DNA from: a virus
Lineage: Duplodnaviria; Heunggongvirae; Uroviricota; Caudoviricetes
Length of the DNA: 64,000 nt
Virus record (IMG/VR): IMGVR_UViG_3300035516_000805
Reading direction: 5' to 3' (one strand)
In this document: positions 4,597-48,374 of the stretch, in pieces
Position numbering within the stretch: the stretch's first letter is position 1
Layout: the number at the start of each line of letters is the position of its first letter
Notes under the pieces: generated by a model
The model's database searches: none
Seen by the model: only the letters and a program-made list of their open reading frames with translations
Told to the model about the DNA's origin: nothing
Translations under genes and position numbers: made by a program

Positions 4597-5136
4597 ATGA
4601 ATGATTATAAAACATTAGCAAAGGACTTAGCCGGTTTAACACTTTATGAGTTAAAACAGGGAAAAATTATTTCGAAGGAAAATACTGACCAAGATACTAT
4701 TATAAAAAGAATCATATTAAAAAATAAAATTTTTAAAAAGAATGTCATTTATTTTGAAATTATTAATGGAAAAAAGATACTAGATAAGGAAGAACTTTAT
4801 AAGATTCCCAAAGATAATATTAAGAGAATGAATTACTTAGAGCGTAATTCAACGTTTTTAGAAAATCTTTATCTGTATTCTTTAGAAATGATGGAAGACA
4901 GATTTAATTATGCAGTAAAAGAAAAACAGCTTCAAGATGAAGAATTAATGCTTAAAAAAGACAAAAAAGAATTAAGTAAAACAGGTCAGTTGGAAGTTTT
5001 CAAAAGTTCCAACATTACTCTTTCTTCTTCACCTACGGTTTCAGAAGGTTCTTCGAATTCTTTCTTAACAGAAAATTCTTTGAGTCCTTCTTCGCAAAGC
5101 AATATCAGACCAAGAAGAAAACTTAGAAAAGATTAA
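4597..5136 (+). CDS. hypothetical protein (Ser-rich C-terminus)
   Basis: 179-aa ORF with RBS AAGGAG. Confidence 0.5.
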   Translation: MNDYKTLAKDLAGLTLYELKQGKIISKENTDQDTIIKRIILKNKIFKKNVIYFEIINGKKILDKEELYKIPKDNIKRMNYLERNSTFLENLYLYSLEMMEDRFNYAVKEKQLQDEELMLKKDKKELSKTGQLEVFKSSNITLSSSPTVSEGSSNSFLTENSLSPSSQSNIRPRRKLRKD

Positions 5137-5186
5137 GTCCTCTACCTTAAAGATAGTGGACTTAACACTTTTAGTTTATATTTTTT

Positions 5187-5609
5187 TTAGTTAAAATCAT
5201 CAAATTGTCTACTTTTAAAGTTCTCATAATCTTTATATAATGCAATCATAGAAGAAAAGAATACTTTTAAATTTTTCTCAGAAAGGACCTCTTTGATTGT
5301 TTTTTCCTTTTTAGAAAACTTGTTATATTCAATATTTGGATAAGTAACACCATCAAAGAAATCTGGTAATTCATATCTCCAAATGTTTGCTAATACAATA
5401 CCCTCAGAGGAAAGTTCTTTATTTTGTGGTTGAATTAAAAAAGTTAAATTACAGTTTGATTTCTTAAAAATTTTCAATAAAGATATTATAAAAGCATTTA
5501 CATTACCTGTTTCAAAATTATCTAATGTTAAATAACAGAAAAACGTTCCATCTATGTTATCATAAGTACAGTCAAAGGAAGCTTCGACAGTTAAACGATA
5601 TTCGTTCAT
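5187..5609 (-). CDS. hypothetical protein
   Basis: 140-aa minus-strand ORF. Confidence 0.5.
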   Translation of the reverse strand: MNEYRLTVEASFDCTYDNIDGTFFCYLTLDNFETGNVNAFIISLLKIFKKSNCNLTFLIQPQNKELSSEGIVLANIWRYELPDFFDGVTYPNIEYNKFSKKEKTIKEVLSEKNLKVFFSSMIALYKDYENFKSRQFDDFN

Positions 5610-5867
5610 AATTACAACCTTCTTTCTGTATTATTTTTACTTTTATATAATAAGACAAAAATCATTTAATTAAGTTCCTTATAAAGTTAATAATTTTGGA
5701 CATTTTTATTTATTTTGTTAAAAAAGATAACAAAATAAATAAGTTCTTACACAATGTAAACTTTAAAAGTTATACATACTATAATGGTCTTTAATTTTAA
5801 AGATAATCATATACCGTTCCATTATAATAATTTTTATGTGAAATTACAATAATAGTTTTCATATAAA

Positions 5868-5999
5868 TTATTTAAAAACTGACTGTCCCATTTTTCCTAT
5901 ACAATAAATATTTATAGAAGAAGTGGAACATATATCATTTTTATCATTATTGTAATGTTTTTCTATATAATAGGTATATTGATATGGTATATGATTCAT
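5868..5999 (-). CDS. small conserved ORF inside long direct repeat copy A (43 aa)
   Basis: MNHIPYQYTYYIEKHYNNDKNDICSTSSINIYCIGKMGQSVFK; a near-identical ORF is present in repeat copy B, differing by amino-acid replacements rather than frameshifts. Confidence 0.3.
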   Translation of the reverse strand: MNHIPYQYTYYIEKHYNNDKNDICSTSSINIYCIGKMGQSVFK

Positions 6000-6113
6000 A
6001 TATTTTTACCCTTTAACGCAAAAACTTTATAATGTTTCACTTTTTAAGGTCTTATTTTAAGTTTTTAACTTTTATACATAAAATTTTTATATTTAAAACG
6101 AAAAAACTTATAA
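5884..6113 (+). repeat. copy A of ~230-bp long direct repeat (copy B at 35266-35498)
   Basis: Near-identical sequence by eye (a few mismatches). Confidence 0.85.
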
Positions 6114-6129
6114 TTTTAGGACTTTACAT

Positions 6130-6420
6130 TTATAAAAAACATAAAAGTTAAAATTTTATAAGGTTTAATCATAAAATTCTTTAAATTTCTATTTTATCTA
6201 TAAAAGTTTAACCTTTATAGATTTTAACCTTTAAAGAATAAAACCTTTATAGATTTTACTTTAAAGGTTTTCCATTTTATAGTTTTTCACTTTTATAGTT
6301 TTTCACTTTTATAGTTTTTAACCTTTAAAATATTCAAACTTTTATAGTTTTAAAACTTTTAATTTTCCAAACCTTTATAATTTAAACATTAATATACTTT
6401 CGGCTAAAGTTTTGACTTTT
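6130..6420 (+). repeat. iteron-like array (putative replication origin)
   Basis: Repeated CTTTTATAGTTTTT / ACCTTTATAGATTTTA units, including 3 perfect tandem 16-mers CACTTTTATAGTTTTT. Confidence 0.6.
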
Positions 6421-6464
6421 ATAGTAACTACAAAGTAATTACTATAAATGGTAAAACTTTCATA

Positions 6465-6478
6465 TTTTACATTATTAA
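6465..6478 (+). promoter_or_regulatory. class II motif
   Basis: attttacattattaaagtagaaaacat, upstream of the AAA+ gene. Confidence 0.4.
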
Positions 6479-6507
6479 AGTAGAAAACATAGAAAGGAAA
6501 AACTTTT

Positions 6508-7629
6508 ATGAAACATATTAAGTATTATTTAACATTTTTAGGAAGCTTAGTTGGTTTAGGACTATGTATTTTAAGTGGAGTATTTTTATTTTATAATTTA
6601 CAGTCAGTTATAGATAACCCTGTTAATGGTCTTTTATATATTACTTTTTGTGTAATAGGAATTATTTTAATAAAGATTATGAATGAAATCAGACCTGATT
6701 TACTGCAGTCAATAGAAGTAGACGAATTTGGACATAAAAAAAGTACTGAATATAAACGATTAAGTCAAGAAGAACGAAGCCAAATAGATGTAATGAATAC
6801 ATTATTGGATGAACAGTCATTAAGTGATGCTGAATACCGTAATATTTTAAAAGAAGGATTCCCTAAAAAAGTAAATCCAATAGATGAACTAAACAAATTA
6901 GTCGGACTAGAAAATGTAAAACTAGAAGTTAAAAAATTAGAGGCAAATATGGCTTATACAAAGGCAGAAGACAGACATGCTTATCATATGTGCTTTTTAG
7001 GTAATCCCGGAACCGGTAAAACAACAGTAGTTAAAATTATTACAAGTTTACTATATAAATATGGTTATATTAAGAATAATCAATATATCCAGACAGATGC
7101 AAGTAGCATATTAAGTAGTTCAAATCCTGTAAGAAAGATGCAGCTATTGTTAATGAGAGCACATGGAAAAGTGTTATTTATTGATGAGGCATATGCATTT
7201 ATTTATGACCAAAGTGGTGAAGGACTTGAAGCACTTGCTGTCTTATTAAATACAATGGAAAATGACCGTGACAGTTTAACAATTATCTTAGCCGGTTATA
7301 AAAAGGAAATGTCACAGTTATTAGACTTAAATAGTGGATTACAGTCAAGAATTAATACTTACTTAGAATTTAAAGATTATGAAATGGCTGATTTGTGGCA
7401 GATATTCTGTAATATGGCAAATTCAAAGGGCTTTACTGTAAATAAGAACTGTCAAAGTGAAGTACTAACACAGTTAGGCATAAAACGGTTAAATGCTAAT
7501 TATGCTAATGCAAGAACAGTTAGAACTTTCTTAGAAGATACCATAAAGGAACATAATTATTTATTATATACGAAAGAAATTCCAGAAGAATATCAAAAAG
7601 TTATTGGTGCTTATGATTTTAAGGCTTAA
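6508..7629 (+). CDS. membrane-anchored AAA+ ATPase, SpoVK/CbbX family
   Basis: N-terminal TM helices; Walker A GNPGTGKTTV, Walker B VLFIDEAYAF, motif pattern typical of SpoVK/CbbX. Confidence 0.75.
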   Translation: MKHIKYYLTFLGSLVGLGLCILSGVFLFYNLQSVIDNPVNGLLYITFCVIGIILIKIMNEIRPDLLQSIEVDEFGHKKSTEYKRLSQEERSQIDVMNTLLDEQSLSDAEYRNILKEGFPKKVNPIDELNKLVGLENVKLEVKKLEANMAYTKAEDRHAYHMCFLGNPGTGKTTVVKIITSLLYKYGYIKNNQYIQTDASSILSSSNPVRKMQLLLMRAHGKVLFIDEAYAFIYDQSGEGLEALAVLLNTMENDRDSLTIILAGYKKEMSQLLDLNSGLQSRINTYLEFKDYEMADLWQIFCNMANSKGFTVNKNCQSEVLTQLGIKRLNANYANARTVRTFLEDTIKEHNYLLYTKEIPEEYQKVIGAYDFKA

Positions 7630-8859: not shown

Positions 8860-8960
8860 AAAAACAGAACTTAGATAGTAGTTTTGAAAGGAACTACTAT
8901 CAGTAGTTATTTTATAACTACTGTTTAAGAAATTCTTTAGAACTTCCAACTAACCAAAAT
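8860..8960 (+). repeat. intergenic hairpin-repeat cluster (TAGATAGTAG...CTACTAT / TTCTTTAGAA / CTTCCAACTAACC)
   Basis: cagaacttagatagtagttttgaaaggaactactatcagtagttattttataactactgtttaagaaattctttagaacttccaactaacc. Confidence 0.7.
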
Positions 8961-20789: not shown

Positions 20790-20870
20790 CAGTTGGTAGT
20801 TCTCTGAGAGAACTACCAACACTACTGATAGTAGTTATAAAATAACTACTATCTAAGAAAGTGTAAACTC
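20790..20870 (+). repeat. hairpin-repeat cluster
   Basis: gttggtagttctctgagagaactaccaacactactgatagtagttataaaataactactatctaag. Confidence 0.7.
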
Positions 20871-20925
20871 CTAATATGGAGAGAAGTTGAAGACGAAAAT
20901 GATAGAAATTTTTTATCTAATCTTA

Positions 20926-23142: not shown

Positions 23143-23436
23143 ATGGCAAATACAACTATTACAATGCGAATTGACGAAGATATAAAAATCCAATTGCAAG
23201 AGTTAACAACAAAATTAGGTATGGATGTTTCAACATACCTTTTAATGGCAGTAAAACAAGGAATAAGAGAGCAGGCATTACCATTTCATCCTAATTTAGG
23301 AGTAAATAGAAATTTAAAGAAGGAAGAAGCGTTTGAGTCTATGGAGGAAATAGTAAATAATAAAGTTATTTTAAATTCTAATATAGATTATGATGCGGAG
23401 TTAGCTTCTTATAGGGATGAAAAATATGGAAAATAA
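23143..23436 (+). CDS. RelB/DinJ-family antitoxin (ribbon-helix-helix)
   Basis: MRIDEDIKIQLQELTTKLGMDVSTYLLMAV is typical of DinJ/RelB; overlaps the downstream PIN gene. Confidence 0.65.
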   Translation: MANTTITMRIDEDIKIQLQELTTKLGMDVSTYLLMAVKQGIREQALPFHPNLGVNRNLKKEEAFESMEEIVNNKVILNSNIDYDAELASYRDEKYGK

Positions 23437-23848
23437 AATTTTAATAGATACAAATATTTTACTTGATTATTTTCTAAAACGAGAGCCATTCTATCAATAT
23501 GCAAAAAAAATAATTTCTTTATGTAAAAGTGATGAAATACAGGGGTGTATCGCTTCTCATTCCATTTCTAATATGTTTTTTATTTTGAGAAAAGAATATT
23601 CATCAAAAGAAAGAAGAATATTATTATTGGATTTGTGTTTGATTTTTACAGTTATTGATATTAATAAAAGTAAACTAATAAATAGTCTTAAAAATGAAGA
23701 TTTCACTGATTTTGAAGATTGTTTACAAATGGAATGTGCAAAAGAATTTGATGCAAAATATATTATAACAAGAAATATAGACGATTATAAAACTTCTGAG
23801 ATTCCGTCAATTACACCAAAAGAATATTTAGAAATTATAGAAAGATAA
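23417..23848 (+). CDS. PIN-domain (VapC-like) toxin
   Basis: ILIDTNILLDY N-terminal PIN motif; later acidic residues; start overlaps the antitoxin gene. Confidence 0.7.
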   Translation: MKNMENKILIDTNILLDYFLKREPFYQYAKKIISLCKSDEIQGCIASHSISNMFFILRKEYSSKERRILLLDLCLIFTVIDINKSKLINSLKNEDFTDFEDCLQMECAKEFDAKYIITRNIDDYKTSEIPSITPKEYLEIIER

Positions 23849-24168: not shown

Positions 24169-24828
24169 ATGGATAAGAAATATGAATTGACAGATGAAAC
24201 AATAAAAATTGATAGCGGTGAAGTATTACATAGAATTAAAGCTTTAAAAGACTTTGCAGACATTAAAGCAGGCGACATTGGAGGATTTGTAGAGTCAGAA
24301 GATAATTTATCCCAAGAAGGTAATTGTTGGATATATAATGAAGCTAAAGTATATAATAACGCTAGAATTTCAGATAATGCTTTAGTTTATGATAATGCTA
24401 AAATAACAGGTAATGCCATAATTTATGGCAATGCTAAAATTTATGAATATGCACATGTCTATGATAATGTTATAATATCCGGTAATGCCATAATTAGTGG
24501 CAATGCTAAAGTTTATGATAATGCTAAAGTTTCATATAATGCACAAGTCTATGGTAATGCTATAATTTCAAATGATGTTAAAATTTGGGGTAATGCAATT
24601 ATTTATGATAATGCCAGAATTTATGATTTAGCTAGAATTTATGATGATGCGAAAATTTTTGGTCACGCTAAAATTTATGGTAACACTAAAATTTTAGGCA
24701 AATCAAAAATTTGCAACAACACTGAAATTCATGGTAATTTCTTTATCTGTGATAATGTAAAGTTTGATGCTAATATGTCTGTCATTGAAAATTTTAATAA
24801 AGATGAACAAATAAATGAAGAACGATAA
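24169..24828 (+). CDS. hexapeptide-repeat (left-handed beta-helix) protein
   Basis: About 20 consecutive 6-residue repeats [YF]xNAx[IV] (18-bp DNA periodicity). Confidence 0.7.
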   Translation: MDKKYELTDETIKIDSGEVLHRIKALKDFADIKAGDIGGFVESEDNLSQEGNCWIYNEAKVYNNARISDNALVYDNAKITGNAIIYGNAKIYEYAHVYDNVIISGNAIISGNAKVYDNAKVSYNAQVYGNAIISNDVKIWGNAIIYDNARIYDLARIYDDAKIFGHAKIYGNTKILGKSKICNNTEIHGNFFICDNVKFDANMSVIENFNKDEQINEER

Positions 24829-25349: not shown

Positions 25350-25482
25350 TATATAAAATGGAAGTTCTTTAGAACTTTTTAAATAGTAGTTATAAAATAA
25401 TTACTCTGATAGTAGTTATAAAGGAACTACTGTCTAAGATGGAAGGTTCAGACTTGGCTTTTAAAGATGAAAGGAAGAAAAA

Positions 25483-26220: not shown

Positions 26221-26244
26221 GTCTAAAGAAAGGAACAACTTATT

Positions 26245-26346
26245 ATGCTTTATCAGAAGATATATTCAAAAACAGGTAGATATACAAAAGAATGTATGCT
26301 TTATCAGAAGATATATTCAAAAACAGGTAGATATACAAAAGAATGG
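26245..26346 (+). repeat. 51-bp perfect tandem duplication at the 5' end of the membrane-protein gene
   Basis: atgctttatcagaagatatattcaaaaacaggtagatatacaaaagaatgt x2. Confidence 0.85.
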
Positions 26347-27228
26347 AACGAAAAAGAGAATACTTCAACAGCTATATGCTGGCGTATAACAATATGGTCA
26401 ATTTTTATAATCACCCTTTTATATTTATCATTTCAATTTAACGATACAGATTTATACTATATTATTCCAACAGGACGTTATATTTTACAAAATGGAATCC
26501 CTTATGAAAATCCATTTATAACAACAGCCGGACAAAATATTGTTATTCAAAATTGGCTGTATTGTGTAATTGTAGCATTTATTTATAATCATTTACACAG
26601 TGTAGGTTTGTGGCTATTACAATTAATAATTATAACTGCAATGGTAACTATAATCTTTAAATTCTTTGATTTTAAACATTCAGAGAATAAACTTATGGTT
26701 ATTATTTTTTCACTTATTATTATAAAATTATTTAGTTATATAAATTTAAGACCTGAAATACTTACTTTTATTTTAATTATATTAGAAATTCTAGGTTTGG
26801 AAAAATATATTACTACTGAGAAAGCATACTGGCTGTGTTTATTACCACTAACTACATTACTTGAGATTAACTGTCACGCAAGCTATTGGATAATGCATTT
26901 TATTGTAATTTTACCTTATTGTGTTCCAACTTTACCTGCAATTTCACGCAGTAAAAATACTTATATTAAAAACATAAAAAAATTAATCCTGCCAGTTTTT
27001 TCAATGATAGTAACATTATTTATTAATCCGTATAAAGTTAAAGCAATTCGGTATGTTTTTGATGCATTAAAATCCGGAATAATAAAATATAATGAAATTT
27101 GGGAACAACAGCCATTTACAATGTCAGATATATATACATATATATATATGTATATTAATTATTTTTATTATTATGTGGTATCAAAAGAAGTTGACTTCAA
27201 CAGAAACTTATATGTTTATTGGGTTTAA
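26245..27228 (+). pseudogene. polytopic membrane protein, 5' part (GtrC/YfhO-like candidate); frame breaks at a (TA)n tract
   Basis: Multiple TM segments; N-terminus carries a 51-bp tandem duplication; frame continues in the overlapping ORF 27092-27910. Confidence 0.5.
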
Positions 27229-30503: not shown

Positions 30504-31121
30504 ATGATTATGAAGATAACAATTGAAAATTTAACAGCAAAGGCAAATAATAACTATTTTCCAAGTAAGAAATATAAGAATATTTGTGCTGACCTTGAAA
30601 GTTTAGACGATATTTCTTTTAAAGAAGGTGATACAGACAATGTTGTACACTTTATTAAGAAATTTTTTAAGGAAAAGAAGTCAGACCAGATTATTATTTT
30701 AACAAAGTTTATTCATTCTTATGTAAATCAGAAAGAGGACTTAAAAGAAGCTCAGGAACAAAATTTTATTTTAACAAAGAAGTTCTTAGAACAAGCTCAG
30801 GAACAGTCTATTTCAGTAACAACTGAAAATGTTACTTCACCGGATTTTATAACATTACCGATTATTAAGGAAGTAACACTGGTTAATAATACTTTGACAG
30901 CACTCTTTAAGGACGGAGATACAACAACATCAACGTGTATGAAATGTGATACATTTGATTATGAAAAGGGTTTGTTGTTATGTGTACTTCGTAAGATACT
31001 GGGTGAGAAGAACTTTAAAAAGTTATATTATCGTAATATTTTTAAGCTGACAAAGAAATACAATCAGAGTCAGTCAGAAGATGATGAAACAGAAAGATGT
31101 AATATTGATTTGTTTGAATAA
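30504..31121 (+). CDS. hypothetical protein
   Basis: RBS AAGGAG. Confidence 0.55.
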   Translation: MIMKITIENLTAKANNNYFPSKKYKNICADLESLDDISFKEGDTDNVVHFIKKFFKEKKSDQIIILTKFIHSYVNQKEDLKEAQEQNFILTKKFLEQAQEQSISVTTENVTSPDFITLPIIKEVTLVNNTLTALFKDGDTTTSTCMKCDTFDYEKGLLLCVLRKILGEKNFKKLYYRNIFKLTKKYNQSQSEDDETERCNIDLFE

Positions 31122-31225
31122 ATTATAAATTATATATATTTAAAGGGTAAAATTATCTAATTTTACCCTTTAAGATGAATTAACTAATAACGATTAAAAT
31201 ACAACAGCAAAGGAGAAAAAAGGAA

Positions 31226-32821: not shown

Positions 32822-32877
32822 AATTTTTAAAAATATTTTTGTTAAAAATTTATACATTAGGTAATAATTATACATTT

Positions 32878-32914
32878 GGTGTATGGCTAATGCCATACAC
32901 CTCTTTCTTTTTAT
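32878..32914 (+). terminator. intrinsic terminator (cassette copy 1)
   Basis: ggtgtatggc-taat-gccatacacc hairpin followed by tctttcttttt. Confidence 0.75.
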
Positions 32915-32988
32915 GTCAGTTGGAAGTTTTTATAAAACTTACAACACTACTGTTAGTAGTGCTTTTAGCACTACTAACTAAGGAGGTT

Positions 32989-33045
32989 TTTATGTCATAC
33001 TATTGATATTACTATTAATGTGATGTCATATTTTAAGTGAAAAAA
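32989..33045 (+). promoter_or_regulatory. class I promoter/operator (cassette copy 1) with extra ATGTCATACTATTGACAT palindrome
   Basis: ttatgtcatactattgatattactattaatgtgatgtcatattttaagtgaaaaaaaa. Confidence 0.6.
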
Positions 33046-33069
33046 AATATGGGAGGAATTTAGAAATAA

Positions 33070-35209: not shown

Positions 35210-35223
35210 TTTTACATTATTAT
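35210..35223 (+). promoter_or_regulatory. class II motif
   Basis: attttacattattataacac. Confidence 0.35.
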
Positions 35224-35245
35224 AACACAAAGGTAATTATTTTTT

Positions 35246-35372
35246 TTTAAAAAAAGTGTCCCATTTTTCCTATACAATAAATATTTATAGAAGAAGTGAA
35301 GCATATATCATTTTTATCATTATTGTAATGTTTTTCTATATAATAGGTATATTGATATGGTATATAATTCAT
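35246..35372 (-). CDS. small conserved ORF inside long direct repeat copy B (42 aa)
   Basis: MNYIPYQYTYYIEKHYNNDKNDICFTSSINIYCIGKMGHFF, a paralog of the ORF at 5868-5999. Confidence 0.3.
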
Positions 35373-35498
35373 ATATTTTTACCTTTTAACGCAAAAACTT
35401 TATAATGTTTCACTTTTTAAGGTCTTATTTTTTAAATTTTTAACTTTTTTTTACATAAAATTTTTATATTTAAAACGAAAAAACTTATAATTTCAAGA
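35266..35498 (+). repeat. copy B of ~230-bp long direct repeat
   Basis: Near-identical to 5884-6113. Confidence 0.85.
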
Positions 35499-35499
35499 C

Positions 35500-35600
35500 T
35501 TTATACTTTAAAAAACTATAATTTTAAAGCATAAATAATAAAAAACTTTATATTTTTAAAACTTAAATAACAAAAATTTTAATTTTTAAAACTTATAAGG
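35500..35600 (+). repeat. iteron-like AAAACTTATA repeats
   Basis: At least 5 spaced copies of AAAACT[TA]TA between the long repeat and the PIF1-like gene. Confidence 0.5.
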
Positions 35601-35608
35601 AGAAAACT

Positions 35609-37600
35609 ATGGCAAAAAGAACTTTATATCCTTCACTTATAACGAATATAACAAAAGAATATTACGCTTTATGGTCATCTTCAAAAGTAATTACTTTAAA
35701 TGAACTCATGGATATACAAGACTTTATAGAAAATAAACATATATCGGATGACATTGATAATGTAGTTATTAGAAAGTATGTAAATGAAATAAATGATATT
35801 TGTCAGGAAAGAGTGTCAAAAGATATAAGACTTTCGGCTTTAGTTTTATCAATAAATCAGTCTTATAACGAAAAATTCTTTGCACCAATGAAGCATAGAA
35901 CTGAATTATTAATGGATATTGCAAGAAACCGTTTAATGATAAAAGGATGTGAAAGAAGAAATTTTATTTTTGCTTTATATAATACAACTTTAGCTTATCT
36001 TCCTCCAAAAGACCGGTTAAAACTTGTTTATGAAATGAATTGCAATTTTAATACTCCATTATCTGATAGTGAAGTTTTATGTGAAATTGCAAATGCAGAA
36101 TATAAATATCAGACCAGTGGACGTTATTGGAAATGGTCTAATGAAAAATTAGTAACATATTTAGGATTAACAGCAGATGAAATTATGACATATTTCCCTG
36201 AATTGTTACAGAAAGAGGAGAAAAAACAGAATAAGGAATTAAGAAATATACTGATTATGGAATATTTCAATCAAGGCAACAGTTACCGTCAGATTGCAGA
36301 AAAATTAAAGGCAAAGGATATAGACTGCAGTAAAAACACTGTTATGCGTGTTATTCAGACTAATATTGTCAATAGGAAGCAGATAGAAAATCAGAATAAG
36401 GAAATCATTAATTTAGACAATGTACAGTTTACAGGGAAAAATATGATTTCTTATGAAAATTTTAAGGAAATTGTATTAAGTGGTTATAACATTAAAGTAA
36501 TCGGTATGGCAGGAACAAGTAAAACTTTATATATTAAGCATTTAGAAGAAGATTTAAGAGAAACAACAGGGTATAAACAAAAAAATCGTATTAAAATATG
36601 TGCTTTTACAGGAAAAGCTAGTGAAGTTTTCAAAGAAGGCTCAACACTGCATTTAATGATGGGAATTAAAAATGAGGAAATGATAAAAAATCATCAGTTT
36701 GATGAAAATGCTTTAAATAATTTCAAAAAAACAAAGCTTATTATCATTGATGAGATTTCCCTAGTAGGGAAAAAGCTTTTTGATTACTTTATTGAGTTTT
36801 ACAAAAAGTCCGGATGTAAAGGTAATATTGTAATTGTTGGTGACTTTTTACAGTCAAAACCTGTAAAAGATGATTTTTGCTTTAATTCAAAATATTTTGA
36901 TGAATTAAATTTTAAGACAATTCTTTTAAAGAAAAATACAAGACAAACTGATAAAGGGCAGCAGGCAACATTAATGGACTTAGAATGGGGTAAAAACAAA
37001 ATGCAGACTATTCATAATTTAAATCTGCTTGTTAAGAGTAAAACAATAAAGGATTTTAATTATGATGCATTTAGTGTCTGCTTAACAAAGGAACAGGTCC
37101 GTTACATTAATGCTTTACAGGTACAGCATCGTTTTAAAGATGATAAACCGGTTTATTATAATAAAAAGGCATATTATTTAGGGATGCGTGTAATGATTAC
37201 AGCTAATAATACTAAAAAATGTTATTTTAATGGCAATTTAGGTACAATTAAGGCATTTAATAAAAATTCTATTCGTGTCATCTTGGATAATGGCAGGGTT
37301 GTAAACGTGGAATATATTATGAATAAAAATAATATAATTATGCCATTAGAATACGGATATGCTGCAACTGTACAAAAGTGTCAAGGAATGACGTTTAACA
37401 GAATGAACCTTATTGCTATGGATTTACATAATAATGAAACAAATAATGTCTTTATGGAAGGACAGCTATATACGGCTCTCTCAAGATGTGTAGATTTAAA
37501 GAAAATTAACTTAATCGGACAACCTTTTAAAGAAAGCGACATTAAAGTTAATCCTTATGCATTACGTTTTCAGTTTAACTTATATCAATGCGTTAGTTAG
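35609..37600 (+). CDS. PIF1/RecD-like SF1B DNA helicase
   Basis: Walker A GMAGTSKT, Walker B IIIDEISLV, motif TVQKCQGMTF (helicase motif V-like); RBS AAGGAG. Confidence 0.75.
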   Translation: MAKRTLYPSLITNITKEYYALWSSSKVITLNELMDIQDFIENKHISDDIDNVVIRKYVNEINDICQERVSKDIRLSALVLSINQSYNEKFFAPMKHRTELLMDIARNRLMIKGCERRNFIFALYNTTLAYLPPKDRLKLVYEMNCNFNTPLSDSEVLCEIANAEYKYQTSGRYWKWSNEKLVTYLGLTADEIMTYFPELLQKEEKKQNKELRNILIMEYFNQGNSYRQIAEKLKAKDIDCSKNTVMRVIQTNIVNRKQIENQNKEIINLDNVQFTGKNMISYENFKEIVLSGYNIKVIGMAGTSKTLYIKHLEEDLRETTGYKQKNRIKICAFTGKASEVFKEGSTLHLMMGIKNEEMIKNHQFDENALNNFKKTKLIIIDEISLVGKKLFDYFIEFYKKSGCKGNIVIVGDFLQSKPVKDDFCFNSKYFDELNFKTILLKKNTRQTDKGQQATLMDLEWGKNKMQTIHNLNLLVKSKTIKDFNYDAFSVCLTKEQVRYINALQVQHRFKDDKPVYYNKKAYYLGMRVMITANNTKKCYFNGNLGTIKAFNKNSIRVILDNGRVVNVEYIMNKNNIIMPLEYGYAATVQKCQGMTFNRMNLIAMDLHNNETNNVFMEGQLYTALSRCVDLKKINLIGQPFKESDIKVNPYALRFQFNLYQCVS

Positions 37601-38854: not shown

Positions 38855-40063
38855 ATGGGAGTAGTATTTAATACAACGAATGTTTCAAGTCAGGAATATA
38901 CTAATAAATTTCGAACAAAGACATATTTAATTGAACGTCCTAATATTACATATGAAGGGAAATGGGGTATTGCAATGGATGTCGGATATAGTTCAACAAA
39001 GATATTCAGTCCTAATATGGTAGCAAGTTTCCCAACCTTTGTAAAAAAAGTTGCAGAAGGAACAATTGATAGTGCTTTTGGCGGATTAACAAGGTCCATT
39101 ATTGCTTATAAGGATGAAACCGGAGAGTATCTTGTAGGTGAAGCTGCTCAGGATAGAGTATCTATGAGGGAAACAGATAATATTGCGGAATCTGCAATCA
39201 GAAATCGTTATTACAGTATTGAATTTTTAGTAAGCAGCCGTGTAGGAATGGCTCTGGGTATGCAGGATAATCAATATGGTTATGTCGGCGACAGTGAGAT
39301 TTATTTACAGACAGGACTTCCACCGGAATATATGGCAGATAAGGCTGATTTAATTGATGCATTAGCCGGAACACATACATTTAAGATTAAGATTGGTAAC
39401 GGAGCTTGGCAGTCATATGATTTTACTTTACCGGAAGACCATATCAGAGTAATGCCACAGCCAATGGGAACATTAATTAGTATTGCAACAAACAAAGATG
39501 GTACAACCCATAAGTCTGCAAAGGATTATTTTTCAAAGAAGATGTTAATATTTGATGCCGGATATGGAACATTGGATGTATTTTATCTAAATAAGCATAC
39601 ATTGGATGCTCCAAAATGTAAGACATTTTCTCATTATGGGATGCTTGCGGTAATGCAGGAATGTGTTAAGATTTTAAAAGAAGCTCCTTATGAAAAGGAA
39701 ATCTCTCTTACAGCTTTGCAGCAGGTTTTAGAAGACGGCAGTTTCCGTGGAAAATTTGACAGAAAGACAAGAAGCTCAGGCATATTGGATTTTGCACCTA
39801 TTTTAAAGGAAGCAAATGAAAAGATTGCAAGAGAAGCATTAAATACAATTGATGAAGTATATAATTGCTTGACTGATGAAGATTACCTTGTTGTAACTGG
39901 CGGTACAGGAATTGCGTGGCTTCCATTTATTAAGGAATATTATGGAAACATTGAAGGCTTGACAATCCTTATCGGTTCACAGGGAGATGACTTACCGGAA
40001 ATATTTGCAAATGTAAGAGGTTATTACTTTAATTTACTAAATAGTTTTCGTAGTAAGGCGTAG
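38855..40063 (+). CDS. actin-like ATPase (ParM/Alp family)
   Basis: Phosphate-1 AMDVGYSSTKIF, phosphate-2 LIFDAGYGTLDVF, adenosine motif VVTGGTGIAW. Confidence 0.7.
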   Translation: MGVVFNTTNVSSQEYTNKFRTKTYLIERPNITYEGKWGIAMDVGYSSTKIFSPNMVASFPTFVKKVAEGTIDSAFGGLTRSIIAYKDETGEYLVGEAAQDRVSMRETDNIAESAIRNRYYSIEFLVSSRVGMALGMQDNQYGYVGDSEIYLQTGLPPEYMADKADLIDALAGTHTFKIKIGNGAWQSYDFTLPEDHIRVMPQPMGTLISIATNKDGTTHKSAKDYFSKKMLIFDAGYGTLDVFYLNKHTLDAPKCKTFSHYGMLAVMQECVKILKEAPYEKEISLTALQQVLEDGSFRGKFDRKTRSSGILDFAPILKEANEKIAREALNTIDEVYNCLTDEDYLVVTGGTGIAWLPFIKEYYGNIEGLTILIGSQGDDLPEIFANVRGYYFNLLNSFRSKA

Positions 40064-40094: not shown

Positions 40095-40916
40095 ATGGGA
40101 AATACAAGAAAGTTATCAATACGGTTATACCGAATTCATGATATTGATTTATTAACTTTTTATAAAAATCCTGATATTGATTTTAAAAAGACACTATTAG
40201 ATACCCTTGAAAATTATGCTACGGGAAATATATATATTCTTTCCCGTAGAGGTTCAAATTATTATATCAATCCGGACCTTTTAAATTCAAAGTATAAAAT
40301 AGATATTACGTTTAATATAGCTGAATATCCTCATTTATATGAAATGTTAAAGCATATACGTCCAAAGTGGCAAAATGCTCTGATTAAAAACGTATTACGA
40401 ATGTATCTGGCAGGTGATGGATTTTATCCTTGTTGGTCATCAGAAGATTATATTGACCAAAGTAAACTTTATCAGACCAAGTTTGAATCTATTTTAGAAA
40501 CAGACGATTTAATAAGAAAACCGGTTTATCGTAAGAGTGTTCAGAAGAAATTAGAGCTTGAAGAACGGAAAAAGGATAGAGAACTTAGAAAACAGACTTC
40601 TAAGGAAAAAATAAAGAATACTTTAGCTGATTTACAGGAAAAGTCATCATTTATAAAGAATACTGATACAGTTGGCAGTTTAAAAGAACTTTCAACAAAA
40701 GTTTCCAGTACAGATGAAAATACAACATTTATTGAAATTATAGATAATCACAATGAAGAAATAAATAAAAAAGTAGCATTAAATGTTGATACTGTTAAAG
40801 TTACCGAACAGACCATTACTACTGATGAAAAACAGAATCAAACTAATGAAGCTGAACTGACAGAATCAAATTATGATATTTTTGGTGATATAAATTCAAT
40901 GCTTGCTAATTTTTAA
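40095..40916 (+). CDS. hypothetical protein (possible segregation adaptor)
   Basis: Immediately downstream of the actin-like ATPase. Confidence 0.5.
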   Translation: MGNTRKLSIRLYRIHDIDLLTFYKNPDIDFKKTLLDTLENYATGNIYILSRRGSNYYINPDLLNSKYKIDITFNIAEYPHLYEMLKHIRPKWQNALIKNVLRMYLAGDGFYPCWSSEDYIDQSKLYQTKFESILETDDLIRKPVYRKSVQKKLELEERKKDRELRKQTSKEKIKNTLADLQEKSSFIKNTDTVGSLKELSTKVSSTDENTTFIEIIDNHNEEINKKVALNVDTVKVTEQTITTDEKQNQTNEAELTESNYDIFGDINSMLANF

Positions 40917-41324: not shown

Positions 41325-41395
41325 AATACAACAGATAAGCACAAAAGGAGAACGATTATAATAAGAGATTTACACATTAAGTAATAATTATACAT

Positions 41396-41432
41396 TTGGT
41401 GTATGGCTAATGCCATACACCTCCTTCTTTTT
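41396..41432 (+). terminator. intrinsic terminator (cassette copy 2)
   Basis: Same hairpin as at 32878. Confidence 0.75.
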
Positions 41433-41442
41433 ATAGAGGTTT

Positions 41443-41497
41443 TTTATGTCATACTATTGACATTACTATTAATGTGATGTCATATTTTAAGTGAAAA
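41443..41497 (+). promoter_or_regulatory. class I promoter/operator (cassette copy 2)
   Basis: ttatgtcatactattgacattactattaatgtgatgtcatattttaagtgaaaaaa. Confidence 0.6.
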
Positions 41498-41517
41498 AAT
41501 ATGGGAGGAATTTAGAA

Positions 41518-43662
41518 ATGGTTATATATGGTATGGTTTCCGGAGATAATAAAAAATCTGCAATCCTTTATCGTAATGAATTGAATGGCTATACCATATT
41601 TACGATTGATGTTGATGATACTAAGGTTGTCTGTAAAGGTAAAATTCTTACAATACAGGATGAAATGTATTTATCTTTAACAGGTAATTGCTATATAGAT
41701 TCTCAGAGAAGAACATGTTTTGTTTTTGACAGTTATGAAATTATTATAAATGCCAATACTTTAAAGGCTTCTTTTTTAAAGAAATTAAATATTAAAGGTT
41801 TAACGATTGCAAAAATCAATAAAATCTTAGAAAAATTACCAACAAATGAAGAATTTAACAAAATAAGTGAAGCTAAGTTTTTAAACTTATTTGAAAACAC
41901 TAAGGGTATTGATAACTATACTTTGCATACATTATACGAAGTATTAAGGAACTTAAACGAAGAACCGGAAATTGCTAATGAAATTTTAAAATATGGTGGT
42001 ACATATCATATTTTAACACAGATAAAGGATAATTTAAAGAAATATAGAGAAAATCCATATTTGTCTTTTATCCCTTTTAAGGTAGCAGACGGAGTTGCAA
42101 AAGATAGAAATTATTCTTTTAACAACGAACAAAGAGTAGAACGGATTGTTTTTGATATTTTTAATAACAGTTTACAAAATGGCAATACGTGTTTAACCTA
42201 TGATGAAATTAACAGGGCTTATGAACATTTTAAAAAATATGGAGAACGACATATTAAGGAATTACCGTCTATTCAATATATTTTTGCCATTATTGAAAAT
42301 TCTCCATTATTTACTGTCAAAGAATTAGATGGTGAAAATTATTATTATCTAACATATGTGGCAGAACAGGAAAACAATGTTGTTGAAGATGTTATAAGAC
42401 TTACACGATATGCAACAACAAATGTTATTAAAGTAGATACACCGGATTATTTAGGACCATCACAGAGAATTGCATTTGAGGGTATTTTTAAAAATAGTGG
42501 AATTACAAGCGGCATTTATATTATAACAGGTGGTCCCGGTACTGGTAAAACAACTTTGACAAAAGCTTTAATAGATAATTTCAGTAAGTATTATGACCCT
42601 GAAAGAATTGTACTTTGTAGTCCAACCGGATGCGCTGCACAAAATATGGAAAAGAAATGTCAAAAGGAAGCATTTACAATTCATAAAACATTAGGAATTT
42701 GTCCATCAAGCAGTAATCAGCAAAAATTAACCAGAAGCAAGAACTTAAAAGCAGATGTTATCATTGTTGATGAAGCATCTATGCTTGACTTGGAATTAAC
42801 TTCACTTTTGTTCTCAGCGGTTAAAACAGGTGGAATTTTAATTTTAATAGGAGATGTCAACCAGTTACCATCTGTTCGTTATGGAAGAGTGTTAAAAGAT
42901 TTAATTGACAGCCATAAAATTCCTACATTTTATTTAAGGGAAACATATCGTCAGGCTGAAGGAAGTTTAATCATTACTAATGCAAACAATATACTAGAAG
43001 AAAAAGACTTATTTACTGGAAATGATTTCAAAATTCAATATTTTGAAAATGATACTGCACTTTTAAATGCAACTATGGAATTTGTTAAATTATATAAGAA
43101 TAATATGGTTTTAACGCCAAACAGACAATTTTTAACAGGAAGTGTTGAATTAAGTTATCAGATTCAGGAACAAAAAAAGTTAGAGGAATGTAGTAAAATT
43201 AACACAAATAAGGTATTTTACGATTATAATGAACGTCCATTGTTTTATATTGGAAGCAGAATCATAGCAACTTCAAACAGCTATGAGTATGGCTATTATA
43301 ATGGAGATATGGGAGTTATAACAGATATATGCCCAAGTGGTATTGAAATTGTTTTTGATAAGAATAAAAACTCAATAGAAAGGACAACCTTTATTCCTAC
43401 AAGTATTGTTATTACCGATATTGAACTTGCTTATGCAATTTCTATTCATAAATCACAGGGCAGTGAGTACAATGAAATTTTAATTATCTTATCAGATGAC
43501 AGTAAAAGCTTATGTAATAAGAACTTACTATATACAGGCGTTACAAGGGCAAAAGAAAAAGTAACAATTTATGTTACTGGAAATGAAAAAGTAAACTGGC
43601 TGCAACGAGCAATTCATACAGAGGAAAGTAAAAGGAACTCTATTTTGTCTCATTTGATTTAA
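41518..43662 (+). CDS. RecD-like SF1B helicase 1
   Basis: Walker A GGPGTGKTT, Walker B IIVDEASMLD, GDVNQLPSV, IHKSQGSEY; start ATG after GGGAGG RBS (track start 41491 lies in the promoter). Confidence 0.8.
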   Translation: MVIYGMVSGDNKKSAILYRNELNGYTIFTIDVDDTKVVCKGKILTIQDEMYLSLTGNCYIDSQRRTCFVFDSYEIIINANTLKASFLKKLNIKGLTIAKINKILEKLPTNEEFNKISEAKFLNLFENTKGIDNYTLHTLYEVLRNLNEEPEIANEILKYGGTYHILTQIKDNLKKYRENPYLSFIPFKVADGVAKDRNYSFNNEQRVERIVFDIFNNSLQNGNTCLTYDEINRAYEHFKKYGERHIKELPSIQYIFAIIENSPLFTVKELDGENYYYLTYVAEQENNVVEDVIRLTRYATTNVIKVDTPDYLGPSQRIAFEGIFKNSGITSGIYIITGGPGTGKTTLTKALIDNFSKYYDPERIVLCSPTGCAAQNMEKKCQKEAFTIHKTLGICPSSSNQQKLTRSKNLKADVIIVDEASMLDLELTSLLFSAVKTGGILILIGDVNQLPSVRYGRVLKDLIDSHKIPTFYLRETYRQAEGSLIITNANNILEEKDLFTGNDFKIQYFENDTALLNATMEFVKLYKNNMVLTPNRQFLTGSVELSYQIQEQKKLEECSKINTNKVFYDYNERPLFYIGSRIIATSNSYEYGYYNGDMGVITDICPSGIEIVFDKNKNSIERTTFIPTSIVITDIELAYAISIHKSQGSEYNEILIILSDDSKSLCNKNLLYTGVTRAKEKVTIYVTGNEKVNWLQRAIHTEESKRNSILSHLI

Positions 43663-43679: not shown

Positions 43680-46091
43680 ATGGTATTTCAGTTAAAAACT
43701 AAGGAATATGTAAAACCTGTAACAGTTGAAAAGACTTATTCCGGTACAATTAAAGCTATTCCATTTTATGATGAAGCAAGTGGATATATTATCGCAAAAA
43801 TGGAAGTAAATAATAGTGATGTATATTTTTCAATGAGCTTAAAGGGATACTATACAGGTTTATGCGTTAATGATAAGGTTATAGTAACCGGAGAAGTTAA
43901 AAATGATAAATATGGTAATTATATCCAGTTTGATAATCTATCCGTACAAAGTGATGAAAGTGAAAATGGAATTTGCCGTTATCTGGTTGACTGTATTAAA
44001 GGCATTGGAGAAAAATCCGTAAAAGAAATTTATCATAAATTAAAACTTTCTGCGTCAACCTTGGATATATTAGGAAGCAAGGATTTGAAAGACATAAAAG
44101 GATTTAAGACAAAGTATAAAAATATAAATAAGACTTATAAAAGTACAAAGCATTTAATTCCTTTATATCTTTATACAAATGGTTTAATTACAAAAAATAA
44201 GATTACTGCAATTTATGATAAATATAAAGAAGATGCCGTAAAAGTTTTAAGCGAAAATCCATATTTATTAATTTCTATGAACGGAATCAGTTTTAAGACA
44301 GCAGATAAAATTGCATTAAAACTTGGCATTGATGTCTATAGTGAATCTCGTTTAAATTATGGAATAAGCTTTATATTGGAAACTTTAACAGAAAAATATG
44401 GAAGTACGGTTTATGGTTTAGAGGAGGTCTTAAATAATTATAACTTATTATTAAATGAAGATGTATTGATTTCTCTTTATTATAAGAACATAAAAGGTTT
44501 TGATAAGCTTCCGGCGGATATTTCTGAGTATATTGCAATGAATAATACTTTTAAAGACGGCATTGCATTTATAACTGATAAGGAACTTAGTACACTTTAT
44601 GAAAATTATAAGCAGTATTTAAAGGAACACTTACAAAGTATTATCTTAAATAATGCTTTAAAGATACCTACTGAAGACTTAATAAAATTAAATGTTGAAA
44701 CTTTAGCATTATCAGAATATCAGTATATTTATTTTACGGATACTAATAAGGTAATAACGAAGTATTATTTATCCTTAGAGCTTAGAAGTGCAGCATTTTT
44801 GAATCAGTTAAATCATGAGAATCATTTTTCGTTAGACTTTGATAATATTTTACAAAATTTCAGGACTTCAAAAGGTTATACATTGGATGATGACCAAAAA
44901 AGAGCTGTTAAGAATGTTATCTGTAATAATTTAAGTATTATAACAGGTGGTCCGGGAACCGGTAAAACAACAATCTTAGAGTGTGTATTGTATATATTAA
45001 AAGAAATTTTAAGAAAAGATGTAATTTTATTAGCACCAACAGGAAAAGCTGCAAAAAGGATGTCACAGTGTACAGGTATAGAAGCAAGTACTATTCACAG
45101 ATATGTTTTTAGCAATAAAGGAAAATATATTAGGAATAATAATACGTGGTATATTATTGATGAGGCTTCAATGCTTGATATTAAGATATTAGAGTGGATG
45201 CTTAGAGAAGTTGACCCAAAGCATCTTATATTTATCGGAGATATATACCAGTTACCTAGCATTGGTGCAGGAGCCGTACTTAGGGATATGTTAATCAGCA
45301 ACATTCCGAGTGTAAGACTGGAACATTGTCATAGAAATGCAGGCTCTATCAGTAAAAATGCTGAGAAAATCAATCAGGGAAGCAGAATATCTGATTTAAT
45401 TGAGGATAATCATTTTGAGACATATTTTTATGGTAAAGACACTGATTATGAAATAATGATGCAGAAAATCATTGATTTATATATGGAAAATTTAAGCACA
45501 TATGGTGTAAATGAAATGGTAGTACTTGCACCAATGAAAGAACGCTGTGTTTGTACAAGAGAAATTAATAAGAGACTGCAGAATATTTTACATCCGGATG
45601 AAATAATCAAAAAGGTTAATAGCAAGGAATTTCGTAGAGGTGACAGAGTTATTCAGTTGACAAATAATTACAAAGCTGACATTTCGGAAACTTATCCTAT
45701 GATGAATGGTGAATTGTTTACAATATTAGATTTTGAAACAGTGGAAGATGAAGAATTTGTAATTTTGAAAGCTGATGAAAGTTATGAAGATGGCACAACA
45801 GTTATTAAAAGAAAATTGACTGATATGTGTGAAATGGACTTAGCATATGCCTTAACTATTCATAAATCACAGGGTAGTGAGTACAAATTTGTTATTGTAG
45901 CATTAACAAAAGCTGATTATATGTTATTGCAGCGAAACTTATTATATACTGCCGTTACAAGAGCAAAGGAAAAGATTGCCTTAATTGGACAGCCATATGT
46001 AATGCAGATTGCAATTGACGATACAAGTAAGGCAATTAATAGAGATACTACGTTAAATAAATTAATCATAACAGGTCAGCTAGTAGCTTAG
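43680..46091 (+). CDS. RecD2-like SF1B helicase 2 (with HhH-like N-terminal region)
   Basis: GGPGTGKTT, IIDEASMLD, GDIYQLPSIGAG, IHKSQGSEY; HhH-like GIGEKSVKEI. Confidence 0.8.
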   Translation: MVFQLKTKEYVKPVTVEKTYSGTIKAIPFYDEASGYIIAKMEVNNSDVYFSMSLKGYYTGLCVNDKVIVTGEVKNDKYGNYIQFDNLSVQSDESENGICRYLVDCIKGIGEKSVKEIYHKLKLSASTLDILGSKDLKDIKGFKTKYKNINKTYKSTKHLIPLYLYTNGLITKNKITAIYDKYKEDAVKVLSENPYLLISMNGISFKTADKIALKLGIDVYSESRLNYGISFILETLTEKYGSTVYGLEEVLNNYNLLLNEDVLISLYYKNIKGFDKLPADISEYIAMNNTFKDGIAFITDKELSTLYENYKQYLKEHLQSIILNNALKIPTEDLIKLNVETLALSEYQYIYFTDTNKVITKYYLSLELRSAAFLNQLNHENHFSLDFDNILQNFRTSKGYTLDDDQKRAVKNVICNNLSIITGGPGTGKTTILECVLYILKEILRKDVILLAPTGKAAKRMSQCTGIEASTIHRYVFSNKGKYIRNNNTWYIIDEASMLDIKILEWMLREVDPKHLIFIGDIYQLPSIGAGAVLRDMLISNIPSVRLEHCHRNAGSISKNAEKINQGSRISDLIEDNHFETYFYGKDTDYEIMMQKIIDLYMENLSTYGVNEMVVLAPMKERCVCTREINKRLQNILHPDEIIKKVNSKEFRRGDRVIQLTNNYKADISETYPMMNGELFTILDFETVEDEEFVILKADESYEDGTTVIKRKLTDMCEMDLAYALTIHKSQGSEYKFVIVALTKADYMLLQRNLLYTAVTRAKEKIALIGQPYVMQIAIDDTSKAINRDTTLNKLIITGQLVA

Positions 46092-48253: not shown

Positions 48254-48374
48254 AGAATTTGTAGTTTTCATCAATTTTTCATTAAAAATGAAAAATTTGA
48301 TTTTACCGTAAATTCTAAAGAATTTGCGGTGTAATGGAATTTCTATTTTAAAAATGTAAAAAATAGAATTTCCA

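Follow-up and report, generated by a model that had tools for sequence, protein, structure and literature searches.

The leading regions of the F and ColIb-P9 plasmids carry the Frpo and ssi promoters, homologous repeats of ~300 nt that precede several early genes in the same orientation and act in single-stranded DNA (ssDNA) as long hairpins mimicking a duplex promoter. EGeRS1 of pLS20 and pBS72 comprises about five copies of 420–750 bp, 62–95% identical, each situated just upstream of a ribosome-binding site (RBS) and operon (PMC8708921). EGeRS2 of the Bacillus plasmid p576 (pLS20 family, clade II) is likewise repeated before several operons, contains a sigmaA promoter with repeated operator motifs of a plasmid repressor on its flanks, and marks out a regulon (PMC8708921). 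In pSM19035, arrays of 7–10 short contiguous repeats for the ribbon-helix-helix (RHH) ParB protein omega overlap the promoters of several operons and serve as operators as well as centromeres (PMC9499535). Here, a repeated intergenic module is described in IMG/VR record IMGVR_UViG_3300035516_000805, a stretch of 64,000 nucleotides filed under Caudoviricetes and referred to at its full length as the window. Our preferred reading, to which we assign a probability of roughly 0.5, is that the module would be a dispersed, non-coding promoter/operator cassette that is bound by a plasmid-encoded protein and heads several operons.

Two copies of the module, A and B, are present in the window as direct repeats with a start-to-start distance of 29,373 bp. 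A repeat search of the window returned gap-free matches at 5863–6058/35236–35431 (93%) and 6070–6144/35447–35521 (88%), and gapped alignment of 5884–6144 with 35257–35521 gave an identity of ~93% with two small indels. A 41-nt core is the same in both copies and was seen in 0 of 100 shuffles. The preliminary description of this DNA had reported two near-identical direct copies some 29.4 kb apart, in good agreement with these values. However, its repeat length of ~230 bp and its count of two were both too low: the homologous unit spans ~620 bp, copy B being a truncated member, and more copies exist in type IV secretion system (T4SS) and PASTA/methyltransferase contexts. The repeat is real, and an assembly artefact is unlikely; as the copies differ by ~7%, A and B are not one sequence used twice, and independent contigs span both flanks of each. 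Contig L001 (JGI sample 3300035515, 36.8 kb) crosses copy A plus both flanks at 100% identity, and L004 (sample 3300035498) crosses copy B plus both flanks at 99.6%. Further contigs begin at or inside the repeat (L005 at 35244, L002 and L003 at 6139, L006 at 35473), which is how assemblers are expected to behave where a dispersed repeat is genuine.

Searching proteins with the 43-aa minus-strand open reading frame (ORF) of copy A gave three relatives, all from JGI metagenomes, and their contigs expose extra copies of the module. One of these, copy C (L011, L012), precedes a 643-aa gene followed by the T4SS genes PrgI and VirB4; it is located on the same contig as window positions 35244–64000, in the same orientation, at a window-equivalent position of ~77.5–78.1 kb. 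Another (L007–L010) lies between an RNase_T gene and a PASTA-domain gene; downstream of the latter are two orphan DNA methyltransferases and also a PIF1-like helicase. The out-of-window copies in L007, L008, L010 and L011 match copy A at 81–98% over 520–650 bp, a stretch that begins at 5882 and stops just short of the AAA+ start codon (6508). Modules of 355–627 bp thus occur in at least four genomic contexts, in the same orientation and each reaching up to the RBS of the next gene, and at least three full or partial copies reside on one molecule. A profile search of the window with nhmmer revealed no further diverged copies beyond the two known heads, blastn against plasmids and phages gave no match to the repeat, and exact cores of 21–36 nt had no relatives in viral, genome or metagenome contigs. 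Likewise, scans of viral contigs returned no relatives of the helicase encoded after copy B or of the 643-aa protein. According to these searches the module family is confined to one plasmid lineage. Among genome and metagenome contigs, a degenerate two-unit array pattern gave only chance single matches, an unrelated array in L058 and a match inside a coding region of L015. The array at L058 4672–4775 consists of seven perfect 16-bp iterons (CACACTTTTATAGCGT) on a GC-rich soil contig, and its likeness to the unit core is coincidental.

The full module is composed of a head, an array of 10–14 units, a conserved block, and the generic gene-proximal signal with the RBS (Table 1). In four contexts it shares a common left boundary (…CTGTCCCATTTTTCC), which follows immediately on the hairpins terminating the preceding gene, and the module is always intergenic, aimed at the following operon and ending at its RBS. 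Its GC content of 16–18% lies under the window mean of 28%. The two predicted promoters of the head, P1 and P2, have sigma70-like scores of 10/12 and a perfect TATAAT in both window copies. Their hexamers are unchanged in all 7 aligned rows, with P2 varying only in its spacer; 42 of the 261 head columns are variable, and 0 of these fall within the 24 hexamer positions (hypergeometric P = 0.012). The array units follow the consensus tTTtAACyTTTATAgt with a near-palindromic core, CTTTAWAG. This consensus and a spacing of 15–17/30–32 bp are kept in every long copy despite whole-unit indels and an array identity of ~50%. A position weight matrix trained on out-of-window copies only found eight plus-strand matches of at least 14 bits in 64 kb, all eight of them in module A. 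Three array-type units at 6004–6049 overlap P1, from its -35 to about +10, and these units, together with the array that follows, would have the layout of an operator or centromere array. The preliminary description had placed an iteron-like array after each copy; that after A is strong, whereas the one after B is short and degenerate.

Table 1. Positions of the module parts, associated genes and recurrent motifs in the window
Feature	Position	Strand	Remarks
Module copy A, full length	5882..6507	+	ends at RBS of AAA+ gene; homology to L007, L008, L010, L011
Conserved head A	5884..6144	+	89–98% identical among all copies
P1, copy A	6005..6033	+	predicted, TTTACC-17-TATAAT
P2, copy A	6086..6114	+	predicted, TTTATA-17-TATAAT
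Array A	6207..6387	+	~11 phased 16-bp units; tandem repeat finder (TRF) and unit map
Conserved 3' block	6337..6421	+	80–86% identity among long copies; lacking in copy B
Generic motif TTTTACATTATTA near copy A	6465..6477	+	43 nt before AAA+ start codon
ORF in head A	5868..5999	-	43 codons; judged not a conserved gene
Gene after copy A: AAA+ ATPase	6508..7629	+	SpoVK/CbbX/EccA clade; hydrophobic N-terminus read by eye
Module copy B, truncated	35254..35608	+	head and short degenerate array; ends at RBS of SF1B helicase gene
Conserved head B	35257..35521	+	
P1, copy B	35378..35406	+	predicted, TTTACC-17-TATAAT
P2, copy B	35463..35491	+	predicted, TTTATA-17-TATAAT
Array B	35509..35595	+	short, degenerate, ~15/30-bp period; only 1 unit ≥12 bits
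Generic motif TTTTACATTATTA near copy B	35210..35222	+	upstream of module, unlike copy A (downstream)
ORF in head B	35247..35372	-	41 codons; start codon lost in orthologous copy in L004
Gene after copy B: SF1B helicase	35609..37600	+	RecD2/TraA-helicase-like
HipA_C / Fic / PIN paralogues	11203-13207, 62033-62836; 60217-61266, 62841-63770; 23143-23848		
TTTTACATTATTA/T example sites	959, 4546, 6465, 8984, 17783, 24125, 33070, 35210, 37708, 47356, 48375, 50878, 52709, 54195, 61332		
TTGACATTAnTAnTAATACAATGTCATA sites	10607, 13610, 15683, 18439, 18879, 20910, 29896, 32987, 37619, 41441, 49245		
Hairpin family sites	8893-8959, 13508-13574, 15774-15840, 20821-20887, 25383-25448, 48265-48361, 58471-58567		also in L007, L011

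A control region, one of the readings offered earlier, is the best supported, as the module is intergenic, aimed downstream, ends at an RBS and combines promoter-like sites with a phased array. In the mechanism that we propose, the cassette sits after the terminator hairpins of the preceding gene, co-directed with the next operon and ending at its RBS. The 260-bp head would supply one or two sigma70/sigmaA-type promoters (P1, P2), and a DNA-binding protein encoded by the plasmid would coat the 16-bp units cooperatively, both over P1 and downstream of the two promoters. The AAA+, helicase/ParM, T4SS and PASTA/methyltransferase operons could in this way be switched in common, and the copies, as direct repeats, would probably also swap sequence through gene conversion and recombination. 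From this arrangement we infer that the promoters are active, that a protein binds the array and that the operons are co-regulated.

Several observations weigh against the cassette. No cognate DNA-binding protein was identified for the 16-bp units. A proximal TTTTACATTATTA signal is present at every plasmid gene in any case, and A and B differ in how signal and module are ordered, so that the module may not be the main promoter. Promoter-like matches are common at 18% GC (16 versus 9.8 ± 3.5 in shuffled sequence; 7 versus 6.3), and since they are not enriched in such AT-rich DNA the conserved hexamers are only suggestive. Copy B is almost devoid of good array units, and the left 120 bp of the head are highly conserved with no assigned role. 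Instead of selection, recent duplication and conversion could account for the high identity of the copies, and the mosaic and chimeric contigs described below could be short-read assembly effects inside the repeat.

The same identity, which could be recent, the restriction to one plasmid lineage and the breaking of assemblies at the module would all fit a functionless repeat, be it a duplication scar, a selfish or MITE-like element (MITE, miniature inverted-repeat transposable element) or an assembly artefact. However, no terminal inverted repeats or target-site duplications were found at the module, only chance inverted matches of 7–9 nt, and the flanks are unrelated; a MITE or an element derived from an insertion sequence was rejected on these grounds. 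Position and orientation relative to the downstream RBS are moreover consistent in four contexts, the unit consensus and its phasing are retained despite sequence turnover, and the recovery of both junctions of both copies in independent samples, at 7% divergence, excludes a collapsed or duplicated assembly. We consider a repeat without function to be quite improbable.

Both heads in the window carry a minus-strand ORF, and the translations, of 43 aa and 41 aa, are exactly those given in the preliminary description. That the ORFs differ by substitutions and not by frame holds for the two window copies but not beyond them, and in related elements the ORF has decayed. The orthologue of copy B in L004, a contig of another sample, has ACA in place of the ATG, and L011 is put out of frame by an insertion of 1 nt. 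Since the stop codon is located beyond the shared DNA, there are five different tails (e.g. SVFK, HFF, LEVFNF, LVDEIYQ…). Only 1 of the 11 variable sites before the frameshift is synonymous, the other 10 being non-synonymous or start-destroying, and no purifying selection is apparent. The ORF matched no Pfam family, no minus-strand promoter-like site was found upstream of it, and its only relatives among 5.8 billion proteins are three from the same lineage. A genuine micro-protein would be consistent with the Shine-Dalgarno-like AAAGG(G) 9 nt before the ATG, with a frame that is open in most copies and with the prediction of the ORF by a gene caller. Still, open frames of 40 codons are not rare at this base composition (~3% per frame start by our estimate), and given the loss of start and frame, the stop outside the repeat and the lack of purifying selection, the small regulatory protein suggested earlier has next to no credibility. 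The 41–43-codon ORF is a chance reading frame, not a conserved gene, and the 'hypothetical proteins' of 41–68 aa called in these repeats are annotation noise. One protein cluster (P0001, P0124, P0125) groups a 392-aa chorismate synthase at 90% identity with ORFs of 43–45 aa, which is a database clustering artefact; the 392-aa member, GC-rich and unrelated, was rejected as a parent gene of the ORF.

Structure in single strands was assessed for an element that is active as ssDNA after conjugative entry, such as a Frpo-like promoter, an ssi/sso priming site or an EGeRS1-like sequence, repeated along the transferred strand. Several same-orientation copies before operons, on a plasmid whose genes are nearly all co-oriented, would suit such an element, as would the folding of full-length A and L011 better than shuffles (whole-module z = -4.9 and -4.75). 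However, the conserved head shows no excess structure relative to shuffles (z = +0.15 for the plus strand, -0.45 for the minus strand), and the foldability of the whole module is not shared by L007 (-1.8) or B (-0.13). The hairpins differ from copy to copy, arising from near-palindromic units in both orientations, and there is no conserved fold. A GC content below the plasmid mean is also the opposite of what is observed for EGeRS1 (PMC8708921). A Frpo/sso/EGeRS1-type structure, unshared among the copies, was thus rejected for the head, and we regard an ssDNA element as very improbable.

The same degree of doubt applies to a cis-acting RNA leader (antitermination, riboregulator or small RNA) transcribed from P1 or from the upstream generic signal. 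The module of copy B lies between the upstream generic motif and the RBS and hence would be a 5' untranslated region, the many intergenic hairpins of the plasmid could be overridden by a processive antiterminator, and the leader RNA of copy A folds with z = -4.6. Conversely, the best Rfam match reached 24.7 bits, to a plant microRNA model, compared with a gathering score of 83, and the consensus fold of six copies amounted to only -4.85 kcal/mol with 0 compensatory pairs. Furthermore, the most conserved part of the module is upstream of P1, and the array region varies by whole-unit indels.

As direct repeats of 89–98% identity, the copies probably exchange sequence. Over 13.8 kb, L004 and the window differ at 58 positions, and module B, 355 bp long, accounts for 13 of the 58 (P = 2e-9). 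Of the 15 alignment columns that changed in L004, nine show the state of another copy, mainly in an A-like tract equivalent to 5993–6069. In L010, 33 consecutive informative sites are of the L007 type and the following ~75 of the A type, the switch lying between 6074 and 6101 in the manner of a clean single-crossover chimera. The tract in L004 and the chimera in L010 fit gene conversion and recombination between copies. The preliminary description had envisaged an excisable 29-kb segment bounded by the two repeats; exchange between copies is indicated, but with A and B only two members of a dispersed family, a reading confined to that segment is too specific. Two further instances of variation were recorded. 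A hot spot of between-sample differences at 30763–31215, with a 24-nt indel at 31073, covers the 3' end of ORF 30504–31121 and the following spacer. In one plasmid variant (L008 2045–2289 versus window 5022–5268) the RNase_T-module locus is inverted beside the 4597–5268 segment of the window, an arrangement unlike that of the window which points to structural variation around modules.

Arrays of this kind could also be centromere-like partition sites, of the parC/parS type, for a ParM/Alp adaptor, whose dispersed copies may auto-regulate adjacent promoters. A ParM/ALP_N gene (38855–40063) is indeed part of the operon headed by copy B, and it is followed by a 273-aa protein with an N-terminus that could, by eye, be ribbon-helix-helix. 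Phased direct repeats overlap the promoter in known centromeres as they would here. However, copy B, the nearest to parM, has the weakest array, and type II parC is normally located directly upstream of parM. No array of the window takes that place, since the degenerate array of copy B is 3.2 kb and three genes upstream. ParR–parC sites and iteron origins resemble the module in their tandem phased direct repeats with a promoter, here predicted, in or next to the array, and the plasmid has a ParM homologue; yet both are normally single loci beside parM or rep, whereas several copies, with full arrays, here precede unrelated operons. The adaptor, too, is only a candidate. A precedent for several parS arrays in promoter regions is provided by pSM19035 (PMC9499535). 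On balance, partition sites are unlikely, although they are the likeliest of the alternatives, which then descend through an iteron origin and a functionless repeat to the ssDNA element and the RNA leader, ranked equal, and finally the micro-protein. The 273-aa protein (40095–40916; N-terminus KLSIRLYRIHDIDLLTFY), which is unannotated, is a candidate both for a ParR-like adaptor and for the protein that binds the 16-bp units.

An iteron-type origin at copy A, with extra iteron clusters at B and elsewhere for copy-number control by handcuffing, was considered in view of the ~11 tandem 16-bp direct repeats at 6207–6387 (18% GC), which are part of the 1 kb with the highest AT content in the region. 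Copy A is located at the right edge of a 6-kb zone that contains the cumulative GC-skew minimum and in which gene orientation flips. This position favours an origin-proximal place for copy A, but the valley extends over 6 kb and its skew cannot be separated from the direction of transcription. Copies B and C, by comparison, are inside a uniformly plus-strand block. Two full arrays are far from any skew switch, and only copy A is near one. No Rep family was found among the ~55 window ORFs scanned, and DnaA-box-like sites are below expectation in the window (16 versus 23), with none in the module. The replication-type genes reported after each copy did not retain that assignment: the AAA+ protein is of the membrane-anchored SpoVK/CbbX/EccA type and is neither initiator nor loader, and the enzyme called PIF1-like is a generic SF1B helicase of the RecD2/TraA type. 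Judged by family, neither of the two is a replication initiator. Homologues of the AAA+ gene at 45–51% identity (L013, L014) are accompanied by no module and no dispersed repeats. With at least three copies per molecule, no Rep gene, no DnaA boxes in the module and neighbours that are not initiators, the duplicated origin of the preliminary description is unlikely, and we rate an iteron origin as distinctly doubtful.

Compared with the described systems, the module appears not to be a member of any named family, as far as can be judged from sequence. It resembles EGeRS2 in being a conserved sequence before several operons of a Gram-positive conjugative plasmid, and its predicted promoter-like sites, of a kind whose number does not exceed the shuffle background, would if active be combined with repeated motifs in a like manner. 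EGeRS2, in contrast, is about five-fold smaller and only 50–68% identical between copies (PMC8708921), and its TTATCCCnnTTATCCC dual heptamers are bound by the RHH protein Reg, whereas the present arrays hold 10–14 units of 16 bp. No p576-type TTATCCCnnTTATCCC Reg operator was found in or near the modules, and the window contained 11 loose matches versus 7.1 expected. The gross anatomy of EGeRS1 is very similar, including copies that lack one part (PMC8708921), as copy B does here, and the operon-head position upstream of RBSs, in several copies of 355–627 bp, is shared. However, EGeRS1 is GC-rich for its plasmid, has many inverted repeats and ssDNA folds of ~-110 kcal/mol, and lacks a sigmaA promoter (PMC8708921), while the module is below the plasmid mean in GC, has no stable structure conserved between copies and contains predicted sigma70-like sites. 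A blastn search (word 11) with 5600–6520 gave no match to pLS20/p576-type EGeRS among 72,556 PLSDB plasmids, a collection in which the presence of pLS20 and p576 is unconfirmed. Omega sites are likewise repeat arrays overlapping promoters, with repeats in both orientations (PMC9499535), but are built of 7-bp repeats (WATCACW) instead of 16-bp units, have no conserved 260-bp head, serve a ParA-type and not an actin-type ATPase, and show no homology. With Frpo and ssi the module shares same-orientation repeats before several genes of a conjugative plasmid; the long promoter-forming hairpin was not found, the conserved head having no excess foldability.

The DNA that carries the module has a GC content of 28% and almost all of its genes on the plus strand. 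The window encodes a type IA topoisomerase, three SF1B helicases, an actin-like ParM/ALP_N protein, a sigma-70 family factor and an SNF2 helicase, as well as HipA-like, Fic and RelB-PIN genes and a flotillin. Past the window end, the same contig continues with PrgI, a VirB4 (CD1110-family) ATPase, a lysozyme-like protein and a Mob_Pre relaxase. Because of these T4SS and relaxase genes, and because VirB4 and ParM share only ~40% identity with their counterparts on Clostridium, Ruminococcus albus and Butyrivibrio plasmids, the element is assigned from its gene content to an isolated lineage of Clostridia-type conjugative plasmid. Contig coordinates indicate that the plasmid is probably longer than 110 kb. 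A TnpB/IS605 OrfB (Cas12f-like) gene is found on the minus strand of L001 (1655–2905), ~0.6–1.8 kb upstream of window position 1. Accessory paralogy is extensive, with SF1B helicases at 35609–37600, 41491–43662 and 43680–46091 (two in tandem), three HipA_C-like kinases, two Fic genes and, beside a RelB-PIN pair, two additional PIN genes; this paralogue load resembles the anti-defence/establishment genes of a plasmid leading region. An 18-bp coding repeat (~20 copies, 24343–24694) was noted in a hexapeptide/YdcK beta-solenoid gene, two beta-solenoid paralogues lie just upstream of module copy C (L011 10227–11734), and a perfect 51-bp tandem duplication (26244–26345) occupies the very start of ORF 26245–27228.

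Two other motif families occur upstream of genes throughout the plasmid, and repeated modular control regions thus appear to be its general style. The TTTTACATTATTA/T motif was found 30 times in the window versus 2.2 expected, mostly on the plus strand and 41–87 nt before start codons. An AT-rich hairpin usually comes before it, with TAGTAGA, a second hairpin and the RBS behind it, and the motif resembles a generic promoter or processing signal of the plasmid, possibly for its own sigma factor (54238–55266). The second motif, TTGACATTAnTAnTAATACAATGTCATA, is present in at least 11 copies of ~60 nt each, with a consensus -35 followed by the inverted repeat TGACATT-N12-AATGTCA, and resembles a second promoter/operator regulon extending over the plasmid. 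Besides the module, one more upstream region is duplicated, at 32848–33067 and 41368–41519. It is ~95% identical between its copies, combines a strong terminator hairpin with a TTGACAT-type promoter, and lies ahead of the topoisomerase gene (33117) and of the gene for a RecD2-like helicase (41491). In addition, intergenic hairpins of the families ACTACTnnnAGTAGT, GGAAGTTCTAAAGAACTTCC and CCGTAAATTCTTTAGAATTTACGG form clusters of 2–4 between genes, and their stems vary compensatorily between sites.

The module is a lineage-restricted example of a known design principle, for which the mechanism outlined above is a proposal. Tentatively, and with the odds rather against it, the module may constitute a third, previously undescribed type of operon-head control in Gram-positive conjugative plasmids, namely a sigmaA promoter wrapped in a 10–14-unit array of 16-bp repeats. 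One plasmid protein would then both silence and release the transfer, helicase/partition and accessory operons together, and would perhaps pair or segregate plasmids, while the high identity of the cassettes would make them a recombination hinge for operon swaps between plasmid variants. The module family also provides a concrete reason why metagenomic plasmid contigs break in assembly and why their operons seem shuffled. If the proposal is correct, repeated operon-head cassettes would extend past the Bacillus plasmids to an AT-rich, unstructured, iteron-bearing type. One short sequence would then mark the co-regulated operons, or regulon, of a large rumen/gut-type Clostridia plasmid most of whose genes have no known function, by the same approach that defined the establishment regulons of pLS20 and p576.

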